A stretch of 20,000 nucleotides of DNA from an uncultured virus (IMG/VR IMGVR_UViG_3300017963_000244) (lineage: Duplodnaviria; Heunggongvirae; Uroviricota; Caudoviricetes): positions 58,561 to 78,560 of IMG/VR virus record IMGVR_UViG_3300017963_000244; one strand, 5' to 3'. The position numbers and the translations under genes were made by a program. The notes below the pieces were generated by a model that saw only the letters and a program-made list of their open reading frames with translations, had not been told where the DNA came from and made no database searches. Numbering within the stretch: position 1 is the first letter of the stretch; each line of letters opens with the position of its first letter. Of this stretch, positions 2-12,100 are shown piece by piece.

Positions 2-2014
2 TTCAAGTTCAACATCGACGGGACGCCCGTGACGGTGGTGTTCACGGACGGCGTCGGGGCCGCGATTCCCGCGGCCGGGAGCGCCAGCGTGCCTCTCGGT
101 CCGGTCACGACGGCGAACACGGTCCTCGCCCAGATCCTCGCCGGGGCGGTCGGCGCCGGACTGCCAGCCTCGGTCGTGCTCCAGGAGGGCGCGGGCACCC
201 GACTGCTGAGCGCCACCGCCACCACGGACTCCGCCGTCACGATAGGTGCCGGGAACGCGAACGACGTCCTCGGCTTCTCCGACGACGCCACGGCGGCCCG
301 GACCCTGGTCGAGCCCGAGGTCACGGCCTCCGCGCTCATGATGCACCACAGCGCGTCCCTCAACGACGCGCTCCTGGACTACCAGAACCCCGACGCGACG
401 TACTTCGCAGAGCAGGCCCTCGCGGGCGTCGAGACCGACTCGAGCAACGCGCAGTTCCTCTTCATCGAGTCGCAGGCCAACAACATCGTGGGCCTCGGGG
501 CCTCGTCCAACATTACGTTCCTCACCGCCACGAGTGACTCGTGGCTGCGCACGGGGACGGGAGTCGGCGTGGCGACGGGCGAGGGGGCCGCGGGCGAGAG
601 CGGATTCCAGGGCTACTACGTCACGAGCTCGGACCCGGTCGACGGCTCGGGTTCCGCCAACACGTCGTCCCTCAACAACGGCACGGGCCAGGACGGCATC
701 ATCGGCACGACGTACCGCGACGCGGTGACGGGCCTCACCTTCACCGTCCTCGAGCGCGAGGGGGGCTCCGCCTACCCGACGGGCGCGGGGGCCTGGTTCA
801 CCTTCGAGGTGCGCAAGCTCGTCACCACGGACGCGAACATCCCGGTCAACTCCATCCCGGGCCTCGAGATGACGGTCGCGAATACCGAGGGATCCACGAT
901 CCCGCAGGGAGACACGGCCATCGTCGAGACGTTCGACCGGGGCGGCCAGGAACCCGCGGTGGGGGACTCCTACTTCGTGACCTACAACTTCTCGAAGACG
1001 GAGGCCGACTTCGAGACGATGCTGTTCACGAATCAGCGGGCCGTGGAGGCGAACTACGGGGAGGTCAACCCGGACAACCCGGTGTCCCTCGCCGCCTACC
1101 TCGGCTTCCTGAACGGCGGGGTCGTCCTCGCCATCAAGCAGGTGCCGAAGATCCCGGGTTCGAACCAGGCGAGCACCCAGAGCTACCTCGACGCGCTCGA
1201 CGACCTCAGGGGACCGCTGCCGGGAGGCGCCACGCTGGACACGATCACGCCGCTCAAGGGCGACGACGAGGACCTGTTCCTCTCCCTGTCGAACCACTGC
1301 GACATCCAGTCGAGCATCCGGTACCGCTCCGAGCGGACCGGGCTGATCGGGGTCTCGTCGGGGACGCAGCCGACGGACGTCGGCGGCATCGCGCAGCAGA
1401 TCGCGAACACGCGCATCAGGCTCGTGTACCCGGACATCGTGACCCTCACGATCCAGGACGCCCTCGGGAACGACAAGCAGTTCCTCGTGGACGGGACCTT
1501 CCTCGCGGCGGCGCTCTCGGGCAACCGAGCCGCCCCGAGGATCGACGTGGCGACCCCGTGGACGAGGGCCCGCATCGTCGGCTTCGACGAGCTCGCCCGT
1601 ACCCTCGACGCGGTCGAGCAGAACCAGGTGGCCGTACAGGGCGTCACCGTCCTGGACCAGCGCGGCACGATCATCCGAGTCCGTCAGGGCCTCACGACGG
1701 ACATGAGCAACATCCTCACCAAGCTCCCGACGGTCATCACCATCGCGGACGAGGTGCAGCGCTCCGCTCGCAGGGATCTCGACAGGTTCATCGGGGTCAA
1801 GTTCCTGCCGGGCATCCTCTCGGAGATCGAGGGCCAGCTCGCGACCACCATGAAGGCGCTCAAGAACGCCGAGATCATCGCGGCGTTCACGGGCATCCAG
1901 GCGCGGACCACCAACGACCCGACGCTGGTGGAGATCGAAGCATTTTATCAGCCGATTTTCCCGCTTTTATACATCGTTATAACCTTCAACCTTCGCAGCA
2001 ACCTTGGAGGTTGA
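2..2014 (+). CDS. Contractile tail sheath protein, large, 5'-truncated
   Basis: The frame is open from base 2 (FKFNIDGTPV...), so the track start at 29 is not the true start. The C-terminus reads like a sheath C-terminal domain (DAVEQNQVAVQGVTVL...IRVRQGLTTD...TIADEVQRSARRDLDRFIG...EIEAFYQPIFPLLYIVITFNL). Strong G/C-ending codon bias. Lies upstream of the tube, chaperone and TMP genes. Confidence 0.85.
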   Translation, partial: FKFNIDGTPVTVVFTDGVGAAIPAAGSASVPLGPVTTANTVLAQILAGAVGAGLPASVVLQEGAGTRLLSATATTDSAVTIGAGNANDVLGFSDDATAARTLVEPEVTASALMMHHSASLNDALLDYQNPDATYFAEQALAGVETDSSNAQFLFIESQANNIVGLGASSNITFLTATSDSWLRTGTGVGVATGEGAAGESGFQGYYVTSSDPVDGSGSANTSSLNNGTGQDGIIGTTYRDAVTGLTFTVLEREGGSAYPTGAGAWFTFEVRKLVTTDANIPVNSIPGLEMTVANTEGSTIPQGDTAIVETFDRGGQEPAVGDSYFVTYNFSKTEADFETMLFTNQRAVEANYGEVNPDNPVSLAAYLGFLNGGVVLAIKQVPKIPGSNQASTQSYLDALDDLRGPLPGGATLDTITPLKGDDEDLFLSLSNHCDIQSSIRYRSERTGLIGVSSGTQPTDVGGIAQQIANTRIRLVYPDIVTLTIQDALGNDKQFLVDGTFLAAALSGNRAAPRIDVATPWTRARIVGFDELARTLDAVEQNQVAVQGVTVLDQRGTIIRVRQGLTTDMSNILTKLPTVITIADEVQRSARRDLDRFIGVKFLPGILSEIEGQLATTMKALKNAEIIAAFTGIQARTTNDPTLVEIEAFYQPIFPLLYIVITFNLRSNLGG

Positions 2015-2029
2015 TCTAAGCGGTTGCGG

Positions 2030-2053
2030 CAGTCCTACCGGGTGGTAGGATTG
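2030..2053 (+). promoter_or_regulatory. RBS-sequestering hairpin upstream of the nuclease-methyltransferase gene
   Basis: CAGTCCTACC-GGGT-GGTAGGATTG forms a 10-bp stem (one G-U pair). The SD-like GGTAGGA (2044-2050) is in the 3' arm, 7 nt before GTG 2058. No U-tract follows. Confidence 0.6.
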
Positions 2054-2057
2054 GCAC

Positions 2058-4655
2058 GTGACCCCTGAACAACTCGAACAGGTTCTTGCGGCGTTTGCGT
2101 CCGACGACGCGGCCGCCGTGATTGCGAAATGCACAGGTGTGCCACGGGGTCACGTCTACAAGCTCTGGAAAGAACAGTTCGGACCGCGAGCTCTTCGGGA
2201 TCGGGGCAACCGACTTCGCGGCCTGGCGAAGAGTCGTTCGGGAAACTCGGCCAGAACTGAGGTTCGCGACGCCGCCATCGCTGCCTTCGAAGAGGGGGAG
2301 GCGATGAAGGCCGTCGCGCTCCGGTTGGGGGTTCACTACACGCAGATTCGTGAGTGGTGGGTTGAGGTTTACGGGGTGGAGACGGTGGCCGAGCGGGGCC
2401 GTGCCCTTCAGAGGACTCGAACTCGTGCTAACCATGAGAGGCTCAGGGGAAAAGCGCGAAAGGTCCGCGTTATCTCGGTACCTTGTGACGCGTGCGGTCG
2501 GGATCTTGAGGTTTCTACCATCTCGGCGGCTAAAAGTTCGCGAATCGTGTGTTCCTCCTGCGAGCAGTCGGAACGAGGGGCCGACACCGCGTGTCCCGTC
2601 TGTGGTCGACTCTGCGTCGGGAAAAGGGGACTCGCGAGCCACTTAGGGAGCGCCAAAGATGAGGTCCATCGCGAGTATCTTCGGCACCAGGAAGAAGAGC
2701 GTCTTGGAGAGGAGGGTCACGGGCACGTGGTGTGCCTTGAGTGCGGCCATCGTGCTCGGAATCTGTGGAAGCATCTTGAGGCGGAACACGAGATGACACC
2801 CTCCGAGTATGTCGGAAAGTGGCCGGGTGCGTGCTGGCGTACCGAGGCGGCAGAACGAGCACGAGTGCGACGGTCCTCTGAGGCACGTTCGGCCAGCGGC
2901 TTTGGAAAGGGGACGCGGAAGATCGTGGCATGTCCCCAGTGTTCAACGGAGGTCGAGGTCTCTCGTTTTGCGGGGCCGCTTCACGATCTACGCTGTGACG
3001 AGTGCAGGGCAGAGGACGAACTGAAGACATGGTGTGGGAAGAGCGAACCCGAGGACTACGTCTCCTGTCGAGAGTGTGGATTTCGGGCAGAATTTCTCAT
3101 CTCTCATGTCCGATCCGCACACGACCTTGCAGAGTACGTGACTCGTCATCCGGATGCGCCGTTCACGGCGTGTCGGGCTGGTCAGCGGAAATCACCGAGT
3201 ACGAAGCTCGTGCTAACGAAGGAGCAGCTGGTGCCCTTCATGGATGAGGGGCGCGTTGTCGCGGCCGCCGCGGCGAGGGCCTTCGGGTGCGCGCAGTTTC
3301 AAATTCGTCGGGCGTGCAACGAGCTGGGGCTGCAAACCCGACGGCGGCTCGCCTGGCAGAAAGCGGTCCTGGATCGTGCCGCGTCGTATCTGGGCGTCGG
3401 CTACAAGTCGGAGTGGACCGATTCAAGGATCGTCAACGAGGCAACCGGCCGGAAGCTTCACTACGATGGCTTCTTTCCTTCCCGGAACTTGATCATCGAG
3501 GCTCACGGGGACCAGCATTTCTTCTTCATCGAAGCGTGGCACCGCACCTACGAGGAGTTCGAACGCCTGCGCGAGTTGGATCGCTTCAAGCTCAGGCGCG
3601 CTCAGGAGCTCGGGTTTGCCGTGAAGGTCGTCCGGTACGGGGACGCGATTCACGAGAGAGGCTTCTGGAGACGGCTCCTGGAGGACGACCGGGCGCTGTG
3701 GGCCAACAAGTCGGAGAGCGAGCGCCGGGACGACGTGGAGAGGGTGCTGCGGGAACTGAGGGTCTCGGGATTCCCCGACATCCTTCCCTCCCCGAAGACA
3801 CGCGCCGAATTCACGAAACTCCAGAGACAGACGATCTATCTGGACTCGTCGGGAACGATCCGTCCACAGACGACGCGAGGCACGACGGCGTGTGCCTCTT
3901 TTTTTCCGAACAGGTACCGGGCCCGTTACAAGGGGGCGCCGAGCGTGCTGGAGGCGTGGGACGACGACGACAGGTTGCGCAGGGCAGTTCGGGTACAGAT
4001 GGAGGCGGGACATCCCACCACCCCTCACCGTGTGCTGCGGGCCCTCCAGATGATCTGTCGAACGCCCTCCGTGTTTCGTCCCGGAGTCGCCAAATACGTC
4101 TGTCAGACCTACTGTCGCGAGGGGGGGACCGTCTGGGATCCGTGTGCCGGCTACGGGGGGCGTCTTTTCGGCGCGATGGCAACGCACGTGGGGGCCTACC
4201 TGGGCACGGACGTCGAGCCCGAGATCGTCGAGGGAAATCGGAGATTGGCGCAGGAGATCGGCGTCTCCGATCGATGTCAAGTGGTTCAGGCGGCGGCCGA
4301 AGAGTTCGATCCCGAGTCCCCCCTCGATTTGGTATTCACGTCTCCACCGTACTACGACCTTGAAAGCTACGGGTCGCGGTCCGATGCTCGGGCCTACTCC
4401 GACGTGGGCGAGTGGCTTGAGCGTTTCCTGGTGCCCGTGATCAACAAGGGCGCCGAGCATCTCAGGTCCGGCGCCTACTTGATCCTGAATCTTCCGGCCA
4501 AACCCCGCGCCGGCGTCGTCCTTGCCGACGAGGCCGTCAAGATCGCCGTACGAGCTGGTCTCGGGGTTCAGCCCGTCGTTTTCATGCCCGTCAGGCGCCT
4601 TCGGACCTCTCGATCTGCATGGAAGGACCCGCTAGTCGTTTTTCGCAAGCCGTAG
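2058..4655 (+). CDS. Multidomain protein: HTH x2 + zinc ribbons/C2H2 fingers + HTH + Vsr/DUF559(EDxHD)-like endonuclease + amino (N4C/N6A) DNA methyltransferase
   Basis: HTH-like segments (AAVIAKCTGVPRGHVYKLW; MKAVALRLGVHYTQIREWW; AAAAARAFGCAQFQIRRAC). Multiple CxxC pairs at ~2484-3160, including Ros/MucR-like VCLECGHRARNLWKHLEAEHEMTPSEY. Nuclease-like LHYDGFF...IIEAHGDQH...ELDRFK...VVRY at ~3351-3645. SAM-binding motif DPCAGYGG (4137), YLGTDVE and catalytic DLVFTSPPYYDLE (SPPY at 4341). Confidence 0.8.
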   Translation: MTPEQLEQVLAAFASDDAAAVIAKCTGVPRGHVYKLWKEQFGPRALRDRGNRLRGLAKSRSGNSARTEVRDAAIAAFEEGEAMKAVALRLGVHYTQIREWWVEVYGVETVAERGRALQRTRTRANHERLRGKARKVRVISVPCDACGRDLEVSTISAAKSSRIVCSSCEQSERGADTACPVCGRLCVGKRGLASHLGSAKDEVHREYLRHQEEERLGEEGHGHVVCLECGHRARNLWKHLEAEHEMTPSEYVGKWPGACWRTEAAERARVRRSSEARSASGFGKGTRKIVACPQCSTEVEVSRFAGPLHDLRCDECRAEDELKTWCGKSEPEDYVSCRECGFRAEFLISHVRSAHDLAEYVTRHPDAPFTACRAGQRKSPSTKLVLTKEQLVPFMDEGRVVAAAAARAFGCAQFQIRRACNELGLQTRRRLAWQKAVLDRAASYLGVGYKSEWTDSRIVNEATGRKLHYDGFFPSRNLIIEAHGDQHFFFIEAWHRTYEEFERLRELDRFKLRRAQELGFAVKVVRYGDAIHERGFWRRLLEDDRALWANKSESERRDDVERVLRELRVSGFPDILPSPKTRAEFTKLQRQTIYLDSSGTIRPQTTRGTTACASFFPNRYRARYKGAPSVLEAWDDDDRLRRAVRVQMEAGHPTTPHRVLRALQMICRTPSVFRPGVAKYVCQTYCREGGTVWDPCAGYGGRLFGAMATHVGAYLGTDVEPEIVEGNRRLAQEIGVSDRCQVVQAAAEEFDPESPLDLVFTSPPYYDLESYGSRSDARAYSDVGEWLERFLVPVINKGAEHLRSGAYLILNLPAKPRAGVVLADEAVKIAVRAGLGVQPVVFMPVRRLRTSRSAWKDPLVVFRKP

Positions 4656-4708
4656 ATCTCTCCGCTTTTCCCCCTATCGGGCCCCCTCGGCATCAGGAGG
4701 GCACTGTC

Positions 4709-5104
4709 ATGCGGGACGACCTGTACGCGGGCTGGCATCTGCTCTTCGATGCCTTCGTAGACCCCGAGCACGCCGAGCGTCTGGACGACGCCGAGTTTCT
4801 TGAACGGTTATTCCGAGATCTCGTGGAAGTGCTCGACATGGAGATCCTCGGGGAACCGGCGTTCAAGAAGATTCCCTGCGATCCCTCCAGGCTGGACACG
4901 GAGCATGACGAGGGCGGCGTGACGGGTACCGTCATCGTCACCACGAGCCACCTGAGCATCCACACGTGGCCCCTGCGGAAACGCTTCTGCCTCGACGTGT
5001 TCTCGTGCAAGCAGTTCGATCACCTCGCGGTCGAGAGGCTCGTGAGGGCACGCCTCCGCGTCGAGAGGCGGTCGAGTCGCTGGATCCCACGGACGTGGCC
5101 GTGA
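4709..5104 (+). CDS. speD: S-adenosylmethionine decarboxylase (SpeD)-family pyruvoyl proenzyme, atypical
   Basis: AGGAGG at 4695-4700 supports ATG 4709 rather than the track start 4619; 131 aa. GWHLLFD...GGVTGTVIVTT|SHLSIHTWP...LDVFSCKQFD matches the prokaryotic AdoMetDC pattern GxH...GVSGVVVISE|SHxxIHTWPE...DxFTC. Confidence 0.8.
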   Translation: MRDDLYAGWHLLFDAFVDPEHAERLDDAEFLERLFRDLVEVLDMEILGEPAFKKIPCDPSRLDTEHDEGGVTGTVIVTTSHLSIHTWPLRKRFCLDVFSCKQFDHLAVERLVRARLRVERRSSRWIPRTWP

Positions 5105-5307
5105 GCGATTTTCACGAACGGCTCTCCGAATTCATGAACGTGTCGCCGACCGAGCTCGCGCGTCGGCTCAGAAGAGAGGATGACCCCGAGAAGCGCCGAG
5201 CGATGCGCCGGGCCCTCGAGGCATGGCGGCTGACGGAGGGGAATCCCCTGACCCGGAGTGCCTCGCGCGTCGCCCGCACGTGGCTGGCTTCGTTTCTACG
5301 TTTATAG
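5101..5307 (+). CDS. Small hypothetical protein (68 aa), translationally coupled to the speD-like gene
   Basis: The GTG start overlaps the speD stop (GTGA at 5101-5104). Charged, helix-like sequence MSDFHERLSEFMNVSPTELARRLRREDDPEKRRAMRRALEAWRL...SASRVARTWLASFLRL. Confidence 0.6.
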   Translation: MSDFHERLSEFMNVSPTELARRLRREDDPEKRRAMRRALEAWRLTEGNPLTRSASRVARTWLASFLRL

Positions 5308-5324
5308 GCGGTCGATCTACAGGA

Positions 5325-5348
5325 GGGGACCGTCCTGTCCCCATTTTG
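5325..5348 (+). terminator. Possible weak intrinsic terminator or leader hairpin at the end of the cassette
   Basis: GGGGAC-CGTCCT-GTCCCC 6-bp stem followed by ATTTTG. The U-tract is short. Confidence 0.3.
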
Positions 5349-5382: not shown

Positions 5383-6174
5383 ATGGCTAACAAAGACCTC
5401 GCCCCCGCGAACGGCGTACAGGGCTCGAGCTACATCTACGACTTCGGAACGTCCCCGCAGACGCGAACGGCGGTGAGTCAGAAGGTCCGTCTCCTGACGC
5501 CGGCCTACGGCTCGGATGCGAACCTCCTGTTCCAGATGGGGGTCCTGAGCTCCTTCACGCCGAACGAGACGCGCACGATCGACACCCTGCGCGGGATCGG
5601 CTTCGGCGACATGATCGCCGAGCTCGTGCCGTCGGTGACGGAGGCGATGACGGCCGGCTTCGAGCGGGCACTCCTGTACCTCTCGAACCTCTGGCAGGCC
5701 ACGGGCTACGCGGGGGGCGCCTCGGGCCCCGTCAGGAGCCTGCGGCACCATCGCTGGCCCTTCGACATCGAGCAGCAGCTCGTGTTCTCGACCCTCGCCG
5801 ACTACGACCTCACGGGTCAGGCGGGCGTCGGGTTCAACGGGGGCGGCGGCACCTTCGACGGGGGCGTGAAGGAGATCGTCTACCCGCAGGTCACCAACGA
5901 TCCCAACAACTTCCCCGGCGACCTCCGGGGTCACACGGCGATCATCACGCTCTACGAGACCTGCTGGTTCAACTCCTGGTCCCTCACGAACGTGAGCCGC
6001 GACACGGGGATGCTGATGGAGACCGGGGACGTGACCATCAGCGACGTCCACGACTTCAGCTCCGAGTACGGAGAGTTCCTCGCCACCGGCAACGACCCGA
6101 CCATCGGTCAGGTCGGGTCCGTCCGGTTCAACGTGGGCGATCAGCGGACCGCCTCCGACTTCATCACGACGTAA
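5383..6174 (+). CDS. Tail tube protein (putative)
   Basis: GAGGAAGG SD; strong G/C-ending codon bias like the sheath. Tube-like pattern (GVLSSFTPNETRTIDTLRGIGFGDMIAELVP...WPFDIEQ...IITLYETCWFNSWS...GMLMETGDVTISDV). Position between sheath and chaperones/TMP. Confidence 0.75.
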   Translation: MANKDLAPANGVQGSSYIYDFGTSPQTRTAVSQKVRLLTPAYGSDANLLFQMGVLSSFTPNETRTIDTLRGIGFGDMIAELVPSVTEAMTAGFERALLYLSNLWQATGYAGGASGPVRSLRHHRWPFDIEQQLVFSTLADYDLTGQAGVGFNGGGGTFDGGVKEIVYPQVTNDPNNFPGDLRGHTAIITLYETCWFNSWSLTNVSRDTGMLMETGDVTISDVHDFSSEYGEFLATGNDPTIGQVGSVRFNVGDQRTASDFITT

Positions 6175-9157: not shown

Positions 9158-12100
9158 ATGCCAGACCGTCCGCAATTGATCGCCGACGTCATCCTGGAAA
9201 CGAGGGGTGCGCGAGACTTCGCGAACAAGTTCGGAAGCCTGCTTTCGAAGGCCGCGACGTCGTGGCGCGACGAGCTCAAGAAGACGACGGCGGAGGGGGC
9301 CAACGCTGGTTTTAAGCTGGCGATGGCTTCCGGCAAGAGCGGCGCGGCTATGCGCGCCTTCGTGAAGTCCAACATCGCGGACGTCTACGGGAAGTTCATG
9401 CAGGAGCTTCGAGCCGGCAACGTCGCGGAAGCCGAGAGACTTGAGCGAATTTTGGAATCACGCACGCGTCGCTTTCAGAAGGAGGCCGACTCGATAGCCG
9501 AAGCCTTCGCTCGCATGCAGGAGAGGCAGGCGCGGACCTTTACAGAACACACGGACCAGTTCAAGGAGAAAATCGGTTTCTTGCAGCGAGGTCTTTTCGG
9601 AGGGCTTGCGGGATTCGCTGACTTGGCTCGCGGAGGCGGTGCCCTGACACGACGTCTGGGCGAGGAGAGAATGGAGAGAGGCCGACGGCTGCAGAAGGCC
9701 GCCGGAGAAGCGGATCCGGCGGCGACGGCCCGAGCCAACCGCATGGCCAAGATGGGCAAGGCCATCGCGACCATCGGGAAGGCGACCGTTGCCTTCGCGG
9801 CCGTTGCCGGAGCTCTCCTCATGCTCATCAAACTCTTCGCCGATCTTGAATCGAAGATCAAGGACATGAACAAGGAGCTGATCGGCTCGGCGGGCGCGGC
9901 CCAGTTTGGTCTCACTCATGTTGAAATCGTGAGCGGTAAGCTGGCCGATCAACTGGAACGCATGCGGAAGGAGACCACGGGGCTCAACAAGAACTTCATG
10001 GCCTTCCGAGCTGGTGCAGAGGAGCAGCAGAGGATCCTCGCGGGCTTCAACCAGGCCGGTTTCACGTTCGCACGCATGAGCGAGGAGATCCGGAAGGGAA
10101 CCAAGTTCATGGAGTCCTACTCGGACATCACGGCCTTGGCACTCACCTACGCTCGAAACCTCGGAATGGAGTCGAGCGAGGTCACCGAGAAGATGGGTCA
10201 GTTCGCGTTCGAGACGGGGATGGGTCTTCGCGACGTCGCCGAGCAGTTCAGCATCATCTCCCGGGAGGCGATGCTCGCGGGGTTCGTGACGAAGCGATTC
10301 TACGCCGCGGTGATCGAAGTCACTTCGGGCATGGCCTTCTACGGGGTACGAATCGAGGAGACCACGAAGCTCCTCAAGACATTCGACGCGCTCCTCGGAG
10401 AGGCCGTCGGCGCGGAGGCGTTCAAGAGGCTCGTCGGACAGTACAAGGACAAAGGGGCACAGGATCGGATACGAGAACTGATCCTCAAGGATCAGGAGTT
10501 CGCGCAGGAACAGTTCGCGAGTGCCTTCGAACGCCGGATTCGGCAGCTCGGTCAGGAATTCAGCACGCAGCTGGGAATGGATCCTCAGGAGGTCAGGGAA
10601 TTGTTGGCCCTCGATGAGATTAGCATGACCGCTGCGCTCGAGAGACAAGGATTGAAACCTGAGGAGATCGCGAGATTCCGGGGCGCCAGGCTGGTGGGCC
10701 GCGCTGCTGGTGGCGGCCTCGGGGCCATGGAGAGGGCGATGCCGTATGCCGGGCCCGGGTTCGATGTCGCCATGGCCGCTCAGGCCACGCGCATATTCGG
10801 AGGAAGGCGCATCGACGAGGTGCTTCGAGAGATGGGCACGGGCCCTGAGGCAGCCGCACAGATGGCCGCCCTTGAAGAGGCCACGGGTCTCAGTCGCGAC
10901 CTGATCGAAACGGTGGGAGCGCAGTTCACCACGATGGAGGGACATTTCCGCAACCTGCGACAGATTCAAGAGAAGATGGCCACGGGGACGCCACTCTCCG
11001 AGGAGGATAAGAGGATCCTGGAGGATCTTCGTGATAAGTTCGGCATTTATGTTGACGAGTCCACCAAGAAGATCATGAAGGGAGATTTCGACGCGAACAA
11101 ACAGCTCATCAAAGGTACCGGGATAGAGTTGAAGAATGTGATGGATGCCGTCACCGAGACGACCACCATGGGCGAGAAGGAGATCGAAGAACAGATGACG
11201 AAAGACCAGGAGATCGCCACGGAGATCTCCCACAGGATCACGGGCCTGACGGAAGTCATGCAGCAGACGGTCCTTGGCGTCCTCAATGACATCTACGACG
11301 TGCTCGTCAGCATGGCCAAGTTCTTCTTCGAGGACGAAACGGAAAAGCTGGCGAGGTTCGCCGCGTTAGACGAGGCACACAAACAGCGAGAAGCGGCACA
11401 GGCGGAGGCCGAGGAGGCGCGGGAGAAGGAGAGGAAAGCTCGTCAGGCTTTGGAGGAGGCCAAAGCCGGGGGTGACGAGGAGAAGATCGCCCTCGCGGAG
11501 GAGAACCTCAAGGAGACTACCCGCGCTGCCGACGAGACAACCCGTCAGGCGGTGGCCACGGAGGCGGCCGCGCGGACGGCCGAGAACTTGACGGCCGAGC
11601 AGATCGCCGCGCAGGGAGCTGGTTTCAAGGCAGAGGTCGACGCCATCGAAGGTGCAACCGGGGTGAAACTCTTTCGAAGCGAGTCCTTCAAGAAATCCTT
11701 CGGAACCGCCCTCGAAGACGTTCTACCACGTCTTGGCAAGGAAGTGACCGAGGCCTCCTTCGGCATGAAGGTTTCCGAGGCCATGCTGGGTCTCTTTACA
11801 GGTCAACGCCCGTTGACTCGCGAAGAGCGTGCGGCGAAAGAGCTGCAGCCCAAGAAATTCGCCGAACAGTTCATCGCCCAGATGTCGGCGAGGCCGGCAC
11901 TGCTTGAACAGGCCGGAGGAATCGAGAACGTGAGATCGGCTGCCGCGGCAGGCATGGCCCAGATGATGAAACACGAGGACTGGTCGGACATGTGGTGGAC
12001 CGATCAGAACAAGAAGGAGTTCGCGGCGATATTCTCCGCCGCTGCCTCGACCGCACTTGCCGCCAATCTTCCCACCCAGGCCGAGCGGGAGCGACTGGAG

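Follow-up and report, generated by a model that had tools for sequence, protein, structure and literature searches.

The stretch of DNA analyzed here (the window, 20,000 bp) forms the end of a 78,560-bp IMG/VR record of an uncultured virus (IMGVR_UViG_3300017963_000244; here, G000), with a G+C content of 65% and a CheckV completeness of 15%. A second record, G001 (213 kb, 40% complete), shares 16,171 nt with the window at 99.994% identity and was treated as the same phage (the “twin”). Our subject is the gap between a tail-sheath-like gene and a tail-tube-like gene, where an original prediction, made from the sequence of the window, had placed three nonstructural genes and had read two of them as a candidate DNA modification module. 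Three plus-strand genes do fill window positions 2015 to 5348 (Table 1), encoding an 865-amino-acid (aa) fusion protein, a SpeD-family pyruvoyl decarboxylase, and a product of 68 aa. The domains that had been called in them, i.e., a nuclease, an S-adenosylmethionine (SAM)-dependent SPPY transferase, and a SpeD-family enzyme, are right according to motifs, folds, and Pfam matches. In IMG/VR, 286 proteins are related to the tube-like protein (49 to 100% identical), and because the largest contigs that encode them reach 618 kb, the clade is one of very large phages.

Table 1. Features of the sheath-tube gap and its flanks, in window coordinates (HTH, helix-turn-helix; ORF, open reading frame)
Feature	Position	Strand	Basis or content
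Tail-sheath-like protein, C-terminal 670 aa (upstream anchor)	2-2014	+	ESM Atlas features
865-aa fusion protein	2058-4655	+	Zinc fingers/HTH, then Vsr/EDxHD-type nuclease, then SPPY amino-methyltransferase
N-terminal DNA-binding region, residues 1-384	2058-3209	+	HTH domains, zinc ribbons, two MucR/Ros-type zinc fingers
HTH plus Vsr/EDxHD-type nuclease (diverged PD-(D/E)xK), residues 385-545	3210-3690	+	Fold, conserved residues
Amino-methyltransferase module, residues 545-865	3690-4655	+	Motifs, fold, homologues
Motif I, DPCAGYGG	4137-4160	+	SAM-binding motif
Motif IV, TSPPYY	4338-4355	+	Catalytic motif
SpeD-family pyruvoyl decarboxylase, 131 aa	4709-5104	+	Pfam AdoMet_dc
68-aa ORF	5101-5307	+	Reading frame; GTG start overlapping the SpeD stop codon
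Tail-tube-like protein, 263 aa (downstream anchor)	5383-6174	+	Atlas lead, conservation

The gap was compared across 79 related loci in a survey anchored on the tube gene, with hidden Markov models for the sheath end, the tube start, SpeD, the methyltransferase module, and the nuclease. Flanks spanned 6 to 10 kb, many contigs being short fragments, and both anchors were found in 49 distinct intervals, among which the near-duplicate pairs L010/L011 and L014/L016 are still counted. Comparing this interval in related phages had been recommended in the original prediction, and the 49 intervals show a variable hotspot. Gap lengths range from 14 bp (L018) and 122 bp up to 8,494 bp. A SpeD-type gene is present in 7 of the 49 intervals and the methyltransferase module in 7, each time fused to the nuclease; the two occur together in three (L006, which is the window's twin, L019, and L080). 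The nuclease domain is found in 17 intervals, 10 of which lack the methyltransferase, and 28 intervals have none of the three. A scan of 120 ORFs from 41 loci (seven near-identical loci were dropped) identified other cargo in the gap: C5 methylase, VIT-VWA, PLD-like, HNH_3, T5orf172/MerR, SNF2, histidine kinase, Hc1, and HSP20.

Nearly all combinations exist even among relatives whose tube proteins are at least 90% identical: SpeD alone (L007), nuclease without methyltransferase (L008), nuclease-methyltransferase without SpeD (L010, L012, and L013), and both genes (L006 and L080). A SpeD-like gene alone is also found in L014 and L017. A clean 2.7-kb indel (2013-4715) separates the window from L007 and corresponds exactly to the 865-aa gene, from the sheath stop to the SpeD start, while in L010 and L013 it is the SpeD segment of the window that is missing. 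Locus L010 lies in G002, a 618-kb, 92% complete genome that has the nuclease-methyltransferase gene and zero matches to PF02675 genome-wide; likewise, the PF02675 scan found no SpeD at all in G002, G005, and G007 (90 to 92% complete). Proteins encoded in the gap are much more diverged than the flanks (59 to 65% identity for the fusion protein and 50 to 60% for SpeD versus 86 to 96%). The G+C content at third codon positions (GC3) is 0.71 to 0.77 in the three-gene cassette and 0.93 to 0.94 in the sheath- and tube-like genes, which we rejected as a weak sign of recent import, other downstream genes being equally low (0.71 to 0.79). In L012, a C5 cytosine DNA methylase gene (L012:6544-7620; PF00145, 9e-71) is located in the gap directly upstream of the Vsr-like nuclease-methyltransferase gene, an arrangement that recalls the Dcm-Vsr pairing.

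Beyond the clade, single-sequence searches for relatives of the methyltransferase and SpeD got no further than the twin genome and a single close relative, and they were replaced by alignment-based scans. The best 80 of 466 relatives of the methyltransferase module and the best 80 of 558 relatives of canonical SpeD were surveyed with 6-kb flanks. SpeD was found within 6 kb of the module at 2 of the 80 module loci, namely, L019's own contig and L169, and the module was found within 6 kb at 1 of the 80 canonical-SpeD loci, again L169. At loci of the divergent SpeD type that the window carries, the module was within 6 kb in 3 of 35 cases, all in the hotspot of this clade. L169 is a 4.6-kb T4-like contig on which (at L169:1203-3754) a Gp23 capsid gene is followed by a gene for a 725-aa protein and, 30 bp further on, a canonical SpeD gene. 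Besides the same methyltransferase module, the 725-aa protein shows PHROG matches to endonucleases and to DNA-binding proteins. L169, too, looks like an endonuclease-methyltransferase gene that landed in a variable island beside a major structural gene. A survey of gene neighborhoods had been recommended in the original prediction; methyltransferase and SpeD genes co-occur in 3 of 49 clade intervals and in one independent case, and these counts do not support the proposed coupling.

In the 865-aa protein, the N-terminal region has a Pfam ROS_MUCR match at residues 222 to 256 (5.2e-12), weak matches to HTH_23, DZR, and Zn_SUZ12, and a PDB match to Ros (2jsp, 1.6e-6). Its CxxC and H..H columns repeat and are conserved among homologues. 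A Foldseek search with a 481-residue two-domain model (residues 385 to 865) returned generic Rossmann methyltransferases only and no nuclease, and for this reason the nuclease was folded separately. The AlphaFold model of residues 385 to 545 alone (predicted local distance difference test [pLDDT] score, 88.2) consists of an HTH followed by the nuclease-like domain proper, at about 3345-3690. With this model, Foldseek placed Vsr first (1vsr, E value of 1e-3), and VIA-align gave Vsr as the best match (1cw0_A; Z score of 10.1, root mean square deviation [rmsd] of 3.5, 127 residues aligned), together with the homing endonuclease I-Bth0305I (3r3p_B; Z score of 8.2, rmsd of 3.6, 94 aligned), NGO0050 (3hrl, Z score of 7.6), and RAP-domain proteins. 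A Z score of at least 8 was reached by just 5 of 48,161 chains. Thus, in structural comparisons of the predicted model, the domain has a Vsr-type nuclease fold.

Conserved residues of the nuclease are D470, E481, H483, H487, D508, and K511; across 16 homologues, no variation is seen at D470, E481, G484, H487, and K511 and almost none at Q486 and D508. I-Bth0305I is described as having an E-D-x-H-D catalytic set with an extra acidic residue at Vsr position 62 (PMC3239194). The D/E/H/D set of the window nuclease was matched to Vsr D51, F62, H64, H69, and D97 by eye, from motifs only, with one spacing off by one residue. Few proteins belong to the nuclease family: among long proteins, the domain is shared by only 10 clusters, several of them with PF01555. 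We know of no described fusion of a Vsr-type nuclease with a methyltransferase; no literature search was made for such a fusion.

The methyltransferase module combines motif I and an (S/D/N)PP(Y/F) motif IV on a class I fold, as in amino-methyltransferases. Motif I lies about 70 residues ahead of motif IV (a gamma-like order), and the two motifs are invariant in 48 family members, whatever their context. Most of the 98 database homologues of the module are 300 to 450 aa long and have an HTH at the N terminus; for many of them, a PF01555 match is precomputed. The window protein has no PF01555 match at an E value of ≤0.01, and the scores of its relatives are weak (25.3 bits in L010 and 28.7 bits in L019; cutoff, 26.7). 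The model of residues 385 to 865 (pLDDT score, 92.2; predicted template modeling [pTM] score, 0.86) is nearest to the tRNA N2-methylguanosine (m2G) methyltransferases TrmN (3tma, Z score of 19.3), aTrm11 (5e72, Z score of 19.0), and Trm14 (range of Z scores, 18.4 to 19.3), and further amino-group methyltransferases follow within about 2 Z units of these (Z scores of 16 to 19). PDB sequence matches of the module are 3evz (2.3e-5) and 5e71 (3.3e-3). The protein ends about 100 residues past motif IV, inside the Rossmann domain, with no target recognition domain downstream. A validated N4-cytosine DNA methyltransferase is reported to have SPPY as its catalytic motif IV, and the N6-adenine enzyme CcrM to have DPPY (PMC10406627). 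Because of the SPPY motif and the DNA-binding partners found throughout the family, methylation of DNA to N4-methylcytosine (m4C) or N6-methyladenine (m6A) is most likely the activity of the module. Alternatively, it may act on RNA or at N2 of guanine, since the nearest solved folds are those of tRNA m2G methyltransferases.

The SpeD-like gene is preceded by an AGGAGG ribosome binding site (4695-4700), and independent gene calls agree on its start (P0099). Its product matches PF02675 (4.6e-19; 69.2 bits versus a gathering cutoff of 25, and 69.7 bits in the genome scan) and phrog_3125 (6.9e-18), while its score against the NCBIfam equivalog of SAM decarboxylase (AdoMetDC), TIGR03330, is 53.9 bits, below the cutoff of 75.65. 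Alignment to Thermotoga maritima AdoMetDC (1tlu), whose catalytic set is given as S63, H68, and C83 (PMC10407285), predicts self-processing at T79-S80, with H85 and C100; the pyruvoyl Ser, the His at +5, and the catalytic Cys are thus all present. In an alignment of 38 subfamily sequences, the Ser and His are invariant and the Cys is nearly so. This divergent subfamily comprises 38 clusters, mostly from large viral contigs, with the signature xTSHxSxHTWPLR...D.FSC[KR].FD. In place of the canonical AdoMetDC motifs ESH, HTWPE, and FTCG, the window copy has TSH, HTWPL, and FSCK. The validated S-PM2 AdoMetDC and the second copy of this phage read (A)ESH...HT(W/Y)PE...(Y/F)TCG, the validated phiN3 AdoMetDC reads QDSH...HFCD...FSCK, and the SpeDC ornithine decarboxylase (ODC) domains read QLIETS...GHF...Y.D.FSCK (Fig. 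S5 sequences of PMC10407285). Of the four SpeDC diagnostic residues described for the central region (Gln, Thr, Phe, and Tyr; PMC10407285), only the Thr is kept, the others being V, T, and C in a mapping inferred from those sequences.

G001 carries both copies, the one in the gap (69.7 bits) and a canonical one at about 200,383-200,697 (112.1 bits). In tblastn comparisons with 50,697 GenBank phage records, the gap SpeD had no match at 1e-3, and the canonical paralogue matched 143 records. Li et al. describe genomes with two SpeD homologues, or with SpeD and no SpeE, as the lead to neofunctionalized arginine decarboxylases (ADC) and ODCs (PMC10407285). As the window copy belongs to a distinct subfamily and a canonical SpeD exists elsewhere in the same phage, a changed or broadened substrate is plausible. 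We lean slightly toward ornithine or arginine as the substrate, hold SAM to be a less probable one, and consider something else improbable.

Several variants of the SpeD-type gene were observed. In L080 (L080:9296-9733) and P0110, tandem 8-residue TTSHLSIH units (three and two, respectively) lie across the predicted self-processing Ser. In L014 (L014:9141-9521), as well as in L015 and L016 (a clade of about 80% tube identity), the SpeD-like ORF is kept and the pyruvoyl Ser, His, and Cys are gone, and judging from these losses its product cannot be an active decarboxylase. At L195:5965-7104, a SpeD-like member of this subfamily and a GIY-YIG-like endonuclease sequence follow each other within a single open frame, which would be a further link of the SpeD-like gene to mobile endonucleases. 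Among the canonical-SpeD loci, 16 of 80 have tandem pairs of SpeD-type ORFs; in L196:5484-6303 and L198:5472-6294, the upstream ORF has the SpeDC signature and the downstream ORF is canonical.

The 68-aa ORF has no Pfam match and a weak match to phrog_4328 (1.3e-3); in 9 of 79 loci, whether SpeD is present or not, tblastn matches to it lie directly before the tube gene. As to the anchors, the sheath-like ORF encodes 2,483 aa in full (G000 53126-60574; GC3, 0.93), which is unusually big for a tail sheath protein, the sheath-like domain being its final 400 aa or so. By their ESM Atlas features, residues 270 to 670 of the window part resemble tail sheath clusters (0.94, 187 features shared), and 56 of 79 related loci conserve the C-terminal 400 aa. 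The tube-like gene (GC3, 0.94) has an ESM Atlas lead to Phi812_tail_tube (0.95, 186 features; 11% of the cluster members carry the family). Neither protein has a significant match in Pfam, PHROGs, or NCBIfam or, with profiles built from 36 to 37 sequences, in the PDB, the best row for the sheath being DUF4815/ORF65 (E value of 0.21). The identities “sheath” and “tube” are leads that are consistent with gene order and conservation.

A hairpin (TCCTACC GGG TGGTAGGA) is present at window positions 2036-2053, just after the sheath stop; at the same spot (9230-9275), L007, which lacks the 865-aa gene, has instead a strong hairpin of the terminator type, including a T7 run. Another terminator-like hairpin, at 3877-3898 inside the 865-aa ORF, was dismissed, its T run encoding a conserved FFPNRY motif, and terminator-like sites are no more common than in shuffled sequences (5 found versus 3.2 expected). 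Elsewhere in the record, a Pfam scan left nearly all G000 proteins without a match. Four stretches of G000:C1 (27020-27646, 44348-47077, 27698-30016, and 49333-50388) include two genes that contain inteins (a LAGLIDADG domain is present in one), a gene of the PAPS reductase family, and a gene whose product has six stretches of DUF7487.

We propose that the sheath-tube junction is a hypervariable insertion hotspot of this clade of huge phages and that its genes here are separate accessory units, each of which would be gained or lost alone. In this proposal, the 865-aa gene would be a free-standing, homing-endonuclease-like mobile gene whose zinc finger/HTH array would recognize DNA and whose Vsr/EDxHD-type nuclease is expected to cut it. 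The nuclease gene may have gained a C-terminal orphan SAM-dependent SPPY-type DNA amino-methyltransferase, of the kind that is elsewhere paired with a simple HTH, and this methyltransferase probably marks phage DNA as a shield against host restriction and perhaps against the protein's own nuclease. The SpeD-like protein would be a self-processing pyruvoyl decarboxylase, i.e., the product of a polyamine auxiliary metabolic gene among what are presumably late-expressed structural genes. Because the gap gathers unrelated genes that come and go independently, the nuclease-methyltransferase and SpeD genes are most likely neighbors by accident. Taken as a whole, a hotspot that holds a mobile nuclease-methyltransferase gene and a separate polyamine gene, rather than a coupled module, is probably the correct description of the locus. 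Of the explanations offered in the original prediction, it is chance accretion at an insertion hotspot that agrees with the data: the gap varies from 14 to 8,494 bp, its cargo is unrelated, the genes are found apart more often than together, and the indel in L007 is clean.

Some observations weigh against this description. The three co-occurrences in the clade (window/twin L006, L019, and L080) are above a naive random expectation; given shared ancestry and the same slot, they are not decisive either way. The surveys outside the clade took in at most the best 80 loci each with 6-kb flanks, on many short contigs, and L169 is the only independent methyltransferase-SpeD adjacency found in them. 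As for the individual proteins, H483 and H487 stand one residue closer together than the corresponding pair of Vsr and I-Bth0305I, and the nuclease could be inactive or have another role, cleavage, homing, and methylation being predicted. By the inferred mapping, the SpeD-like copy has only one of the four residues diagnostic of SpeDC (ODC), and it keeps the Pro that is described as fully conserved in true AdoMetDCs (PMC10407285), taken here to be the HTWP proline; judged by these residues, it may still be an AdoMetDC.

The coupled chemistry that the original prediction advanced as speculative would have the SPPY transferase use the decarboxylated SAM (dcSAM) made by its neighbor, or transfer an aminocarboxypropyl group for later decarboxylation, so that DNA bases would end up with aminopropyl groups. 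Adjacency and shared orientation in the window, L019, and L080, the independent adjacency in L169, and a fold nearest to amino-group methyltransferases, whose chemistry could in principle take other alkyl donors, all speak for such coupling. However, the methyltransferase module is fully conserved in lineages without SpeD (G002), and 78 of the best 80 module loci have no SpeD within 6 kb; furthermore, four of the seven hotspot intervals with the methyltransferase lack SpeD, and L007, L014, and L017 have SpeD alone. The motifs are those of ordinary methyltransferases and do not vary with context, and no further hypermodification genes were seen in the gap. We therefore regard coupled hypermodification as highly improbable. 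A single-chain restriction-modification (R-M)-like enzyme, which by a type IIG-like logic would methylate phage DNA and degrade unmodified host or competitor DNA, is a more serious alternative, as nuclease and methyltransferase are packed confidently in one polypeptide (pTM score, 0.86), all seven hotspot methyltransferase modules are fused to the nuclease, and the type IIG enzymes BpuSI and DrdV are among the weaker matches to the nuclease fold (Z scores of 5.4 to 5.9). It is nevertheless unlikely: in 10 intervals the zinc finger nuclease occurs without the methyltransferase, which is typical of free-standing homing endonucleases, whereas a restriction enzyme in this state would be toxic to its own carrier; the best folds are Vsr and I-Bth0305I; nothing like a type IIG target recognition domain follows motif IV; and the gene is present or absent at one fixed genomic site.

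The third alternative, draining of SAM, had also been offered in the original prediction, which had noted that the window has no speE; none was found in the 78.5-kb record or the 213-kb twin either, both of which are fragments. PF01564 (speE) had no match in G000, G001, or the four relatives G002 to G005, two of them 92% complete, and it was detected in control genomes; the records that hold the SpeD-like gene are 15 to 40% complete fragments. A speE elsewhere in the genome that would account for SpeD was thus not found in G000 and G001. Phage-made dcSAM would then have no phage-encoded acceptor enzyme, and the SpeD-like enzyme might serve to lower host SAM and so disarm type I/III R-M or BREX systems, perhaps aided by the canonical SpeD and by a SAM-lyase-like protein encoded elsewhere in the genome; the phage methyltransferase would act earlier or at low SAM. 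That the twin genome has two SpeD homologues is in line with such draining, as is a 307-aa ORF (L205:5031-5954, minus strand) that is the divergent neighbor of the canonical SpeD gene (L205:6001-6336, plus strand). This ORF matches DUF3293 (37.7 bits; cutoff, 25) and, below the cutoff of 28, the S-AdoMet_lyase family PF23780 (25.9 bits); it has no PDB sequence match, and a full-text literature search on DUF3293 returned no paper. With a UDG-family gene also nearby, the neighborhood of the canonical SpeD may be a SAM metabolism cluster. Against draining, SpeD without speE is described as common in phages, whose validated SpeDs restore spermidine via the host SpeE, one phage with its own SpeE being reported (PMC9992855). 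In addition, a SAM-dependent methyltransferase next door argues against wholesale SAM depletion, the SAM lyase match is under the Pfam threshold and at another locus, the loss of Ser, His, and Cys in L014 to L016 indicates that the gene is dispensable there, and G002, G005, and G007 have no SpeD. We consider draining of SAM quite unlikely.

An insertion hotspot that can now be documented between the sheath and tube genes replaces the unsupported idea of aminopropylated phage DNA, and it offers a natural catalogue of accessory and mobile genes in very large phages (related contigs reach 618 kb). Two leads arise from it: a rare nuclease family of the homing type with a captured, probable DNA methyltransferase and an uncharacterized SpeD subfamily whose substrate could extend the known neofunctionalization of this small pyruvoyl enzyme. 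A bolder reading, with a specificity in the xTSH/HTWPLR/FSC[KR] subfamily that has not been described for the SpeD fold and with a self-protecting nuclease-methyltransferase mobile element, is unlikely. If true, the subfamily SpeD, the canonical SpeD, and the possible SAM-lyase-like neighbor would amount to a multigene remodeling of host SAM and polyamine pools, and a methyltransferase that shields the carrier genome from its own nuclease would make the fusion a one-protein selfish hybrid of R-M and homing. Both leads are cheap to test in Escherichia coli.

In comparison with known systems, the SpeD-like protein shares the PF02675 fold and the Ser/His(+5)/Cys set with class 1b AdoMetDC and with the SpeDA (ADC) and SpeDC (ODC) enzymes as they are presented in PMC10407285 and PMC9992855. 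Like SpeDC, it has a Thr before the Ser and an FSCK motif; like true AdoMetDCs, it has HTWP; and like the neofunctionalized SpeDs, it is a second SpeD homologue, with no speE found in its records. Its full signature, xTSH...HTWPLR...FSC[KR].FD, fits neither the validated AdoMetDCs nor SpeDC.

The methyltransferase module resembles the orphan phage PF01555 (N6_N4_Mtase) enzymes, with N4CMT and CcrM as references (PMC10406627), in its class I Rossmann fold, in its motifs I (D-P-C-A-G-x-G-G) and IV (S-P-P-Y), and in the HTH domains and weak PF01555 matches of its homologues, whereas its motif order is gamma-like and that of PF01555 enzymes is beta. As in the Dcm-Vsr pair and the type IIG enzymes, a nuclease, here of the Vsr fold, is tied to a probable DNA methyltransferase, in one chain. 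However, the window enzyme is an amino-methyltransferase and not a C5 enzyme like Dcm, and it departs from the type IIG architecture (nuclease, gamma-class methyltransferase, and C-terminal target recognition domain) in that the last domain is missing and the DNA-binding domains are N-terminal.

The EDxHD/Vsr-like homing endonucleases, such as I-Bth0305I and the free-standing Hef type of T-even phages (PMC3239194), differ from the 865-aa protein in several respects: its gene is outside any intron or intein, it has MucR/Ros zinc fingers and zinc ribbons and no NUMOD motifs, its His-His spacing is shorter by one residue, and a methyltransferase is fused at its C terminus. Like them, the protein is phage encoded and bipartite, a DNA-binding N terminus being followed by a Vsr-fold nuclease with conserved Asp, His, and Asp residues and a putative acidic counterpart of Vsr Phe62, and its gene is present or absent at one site among related genomes.

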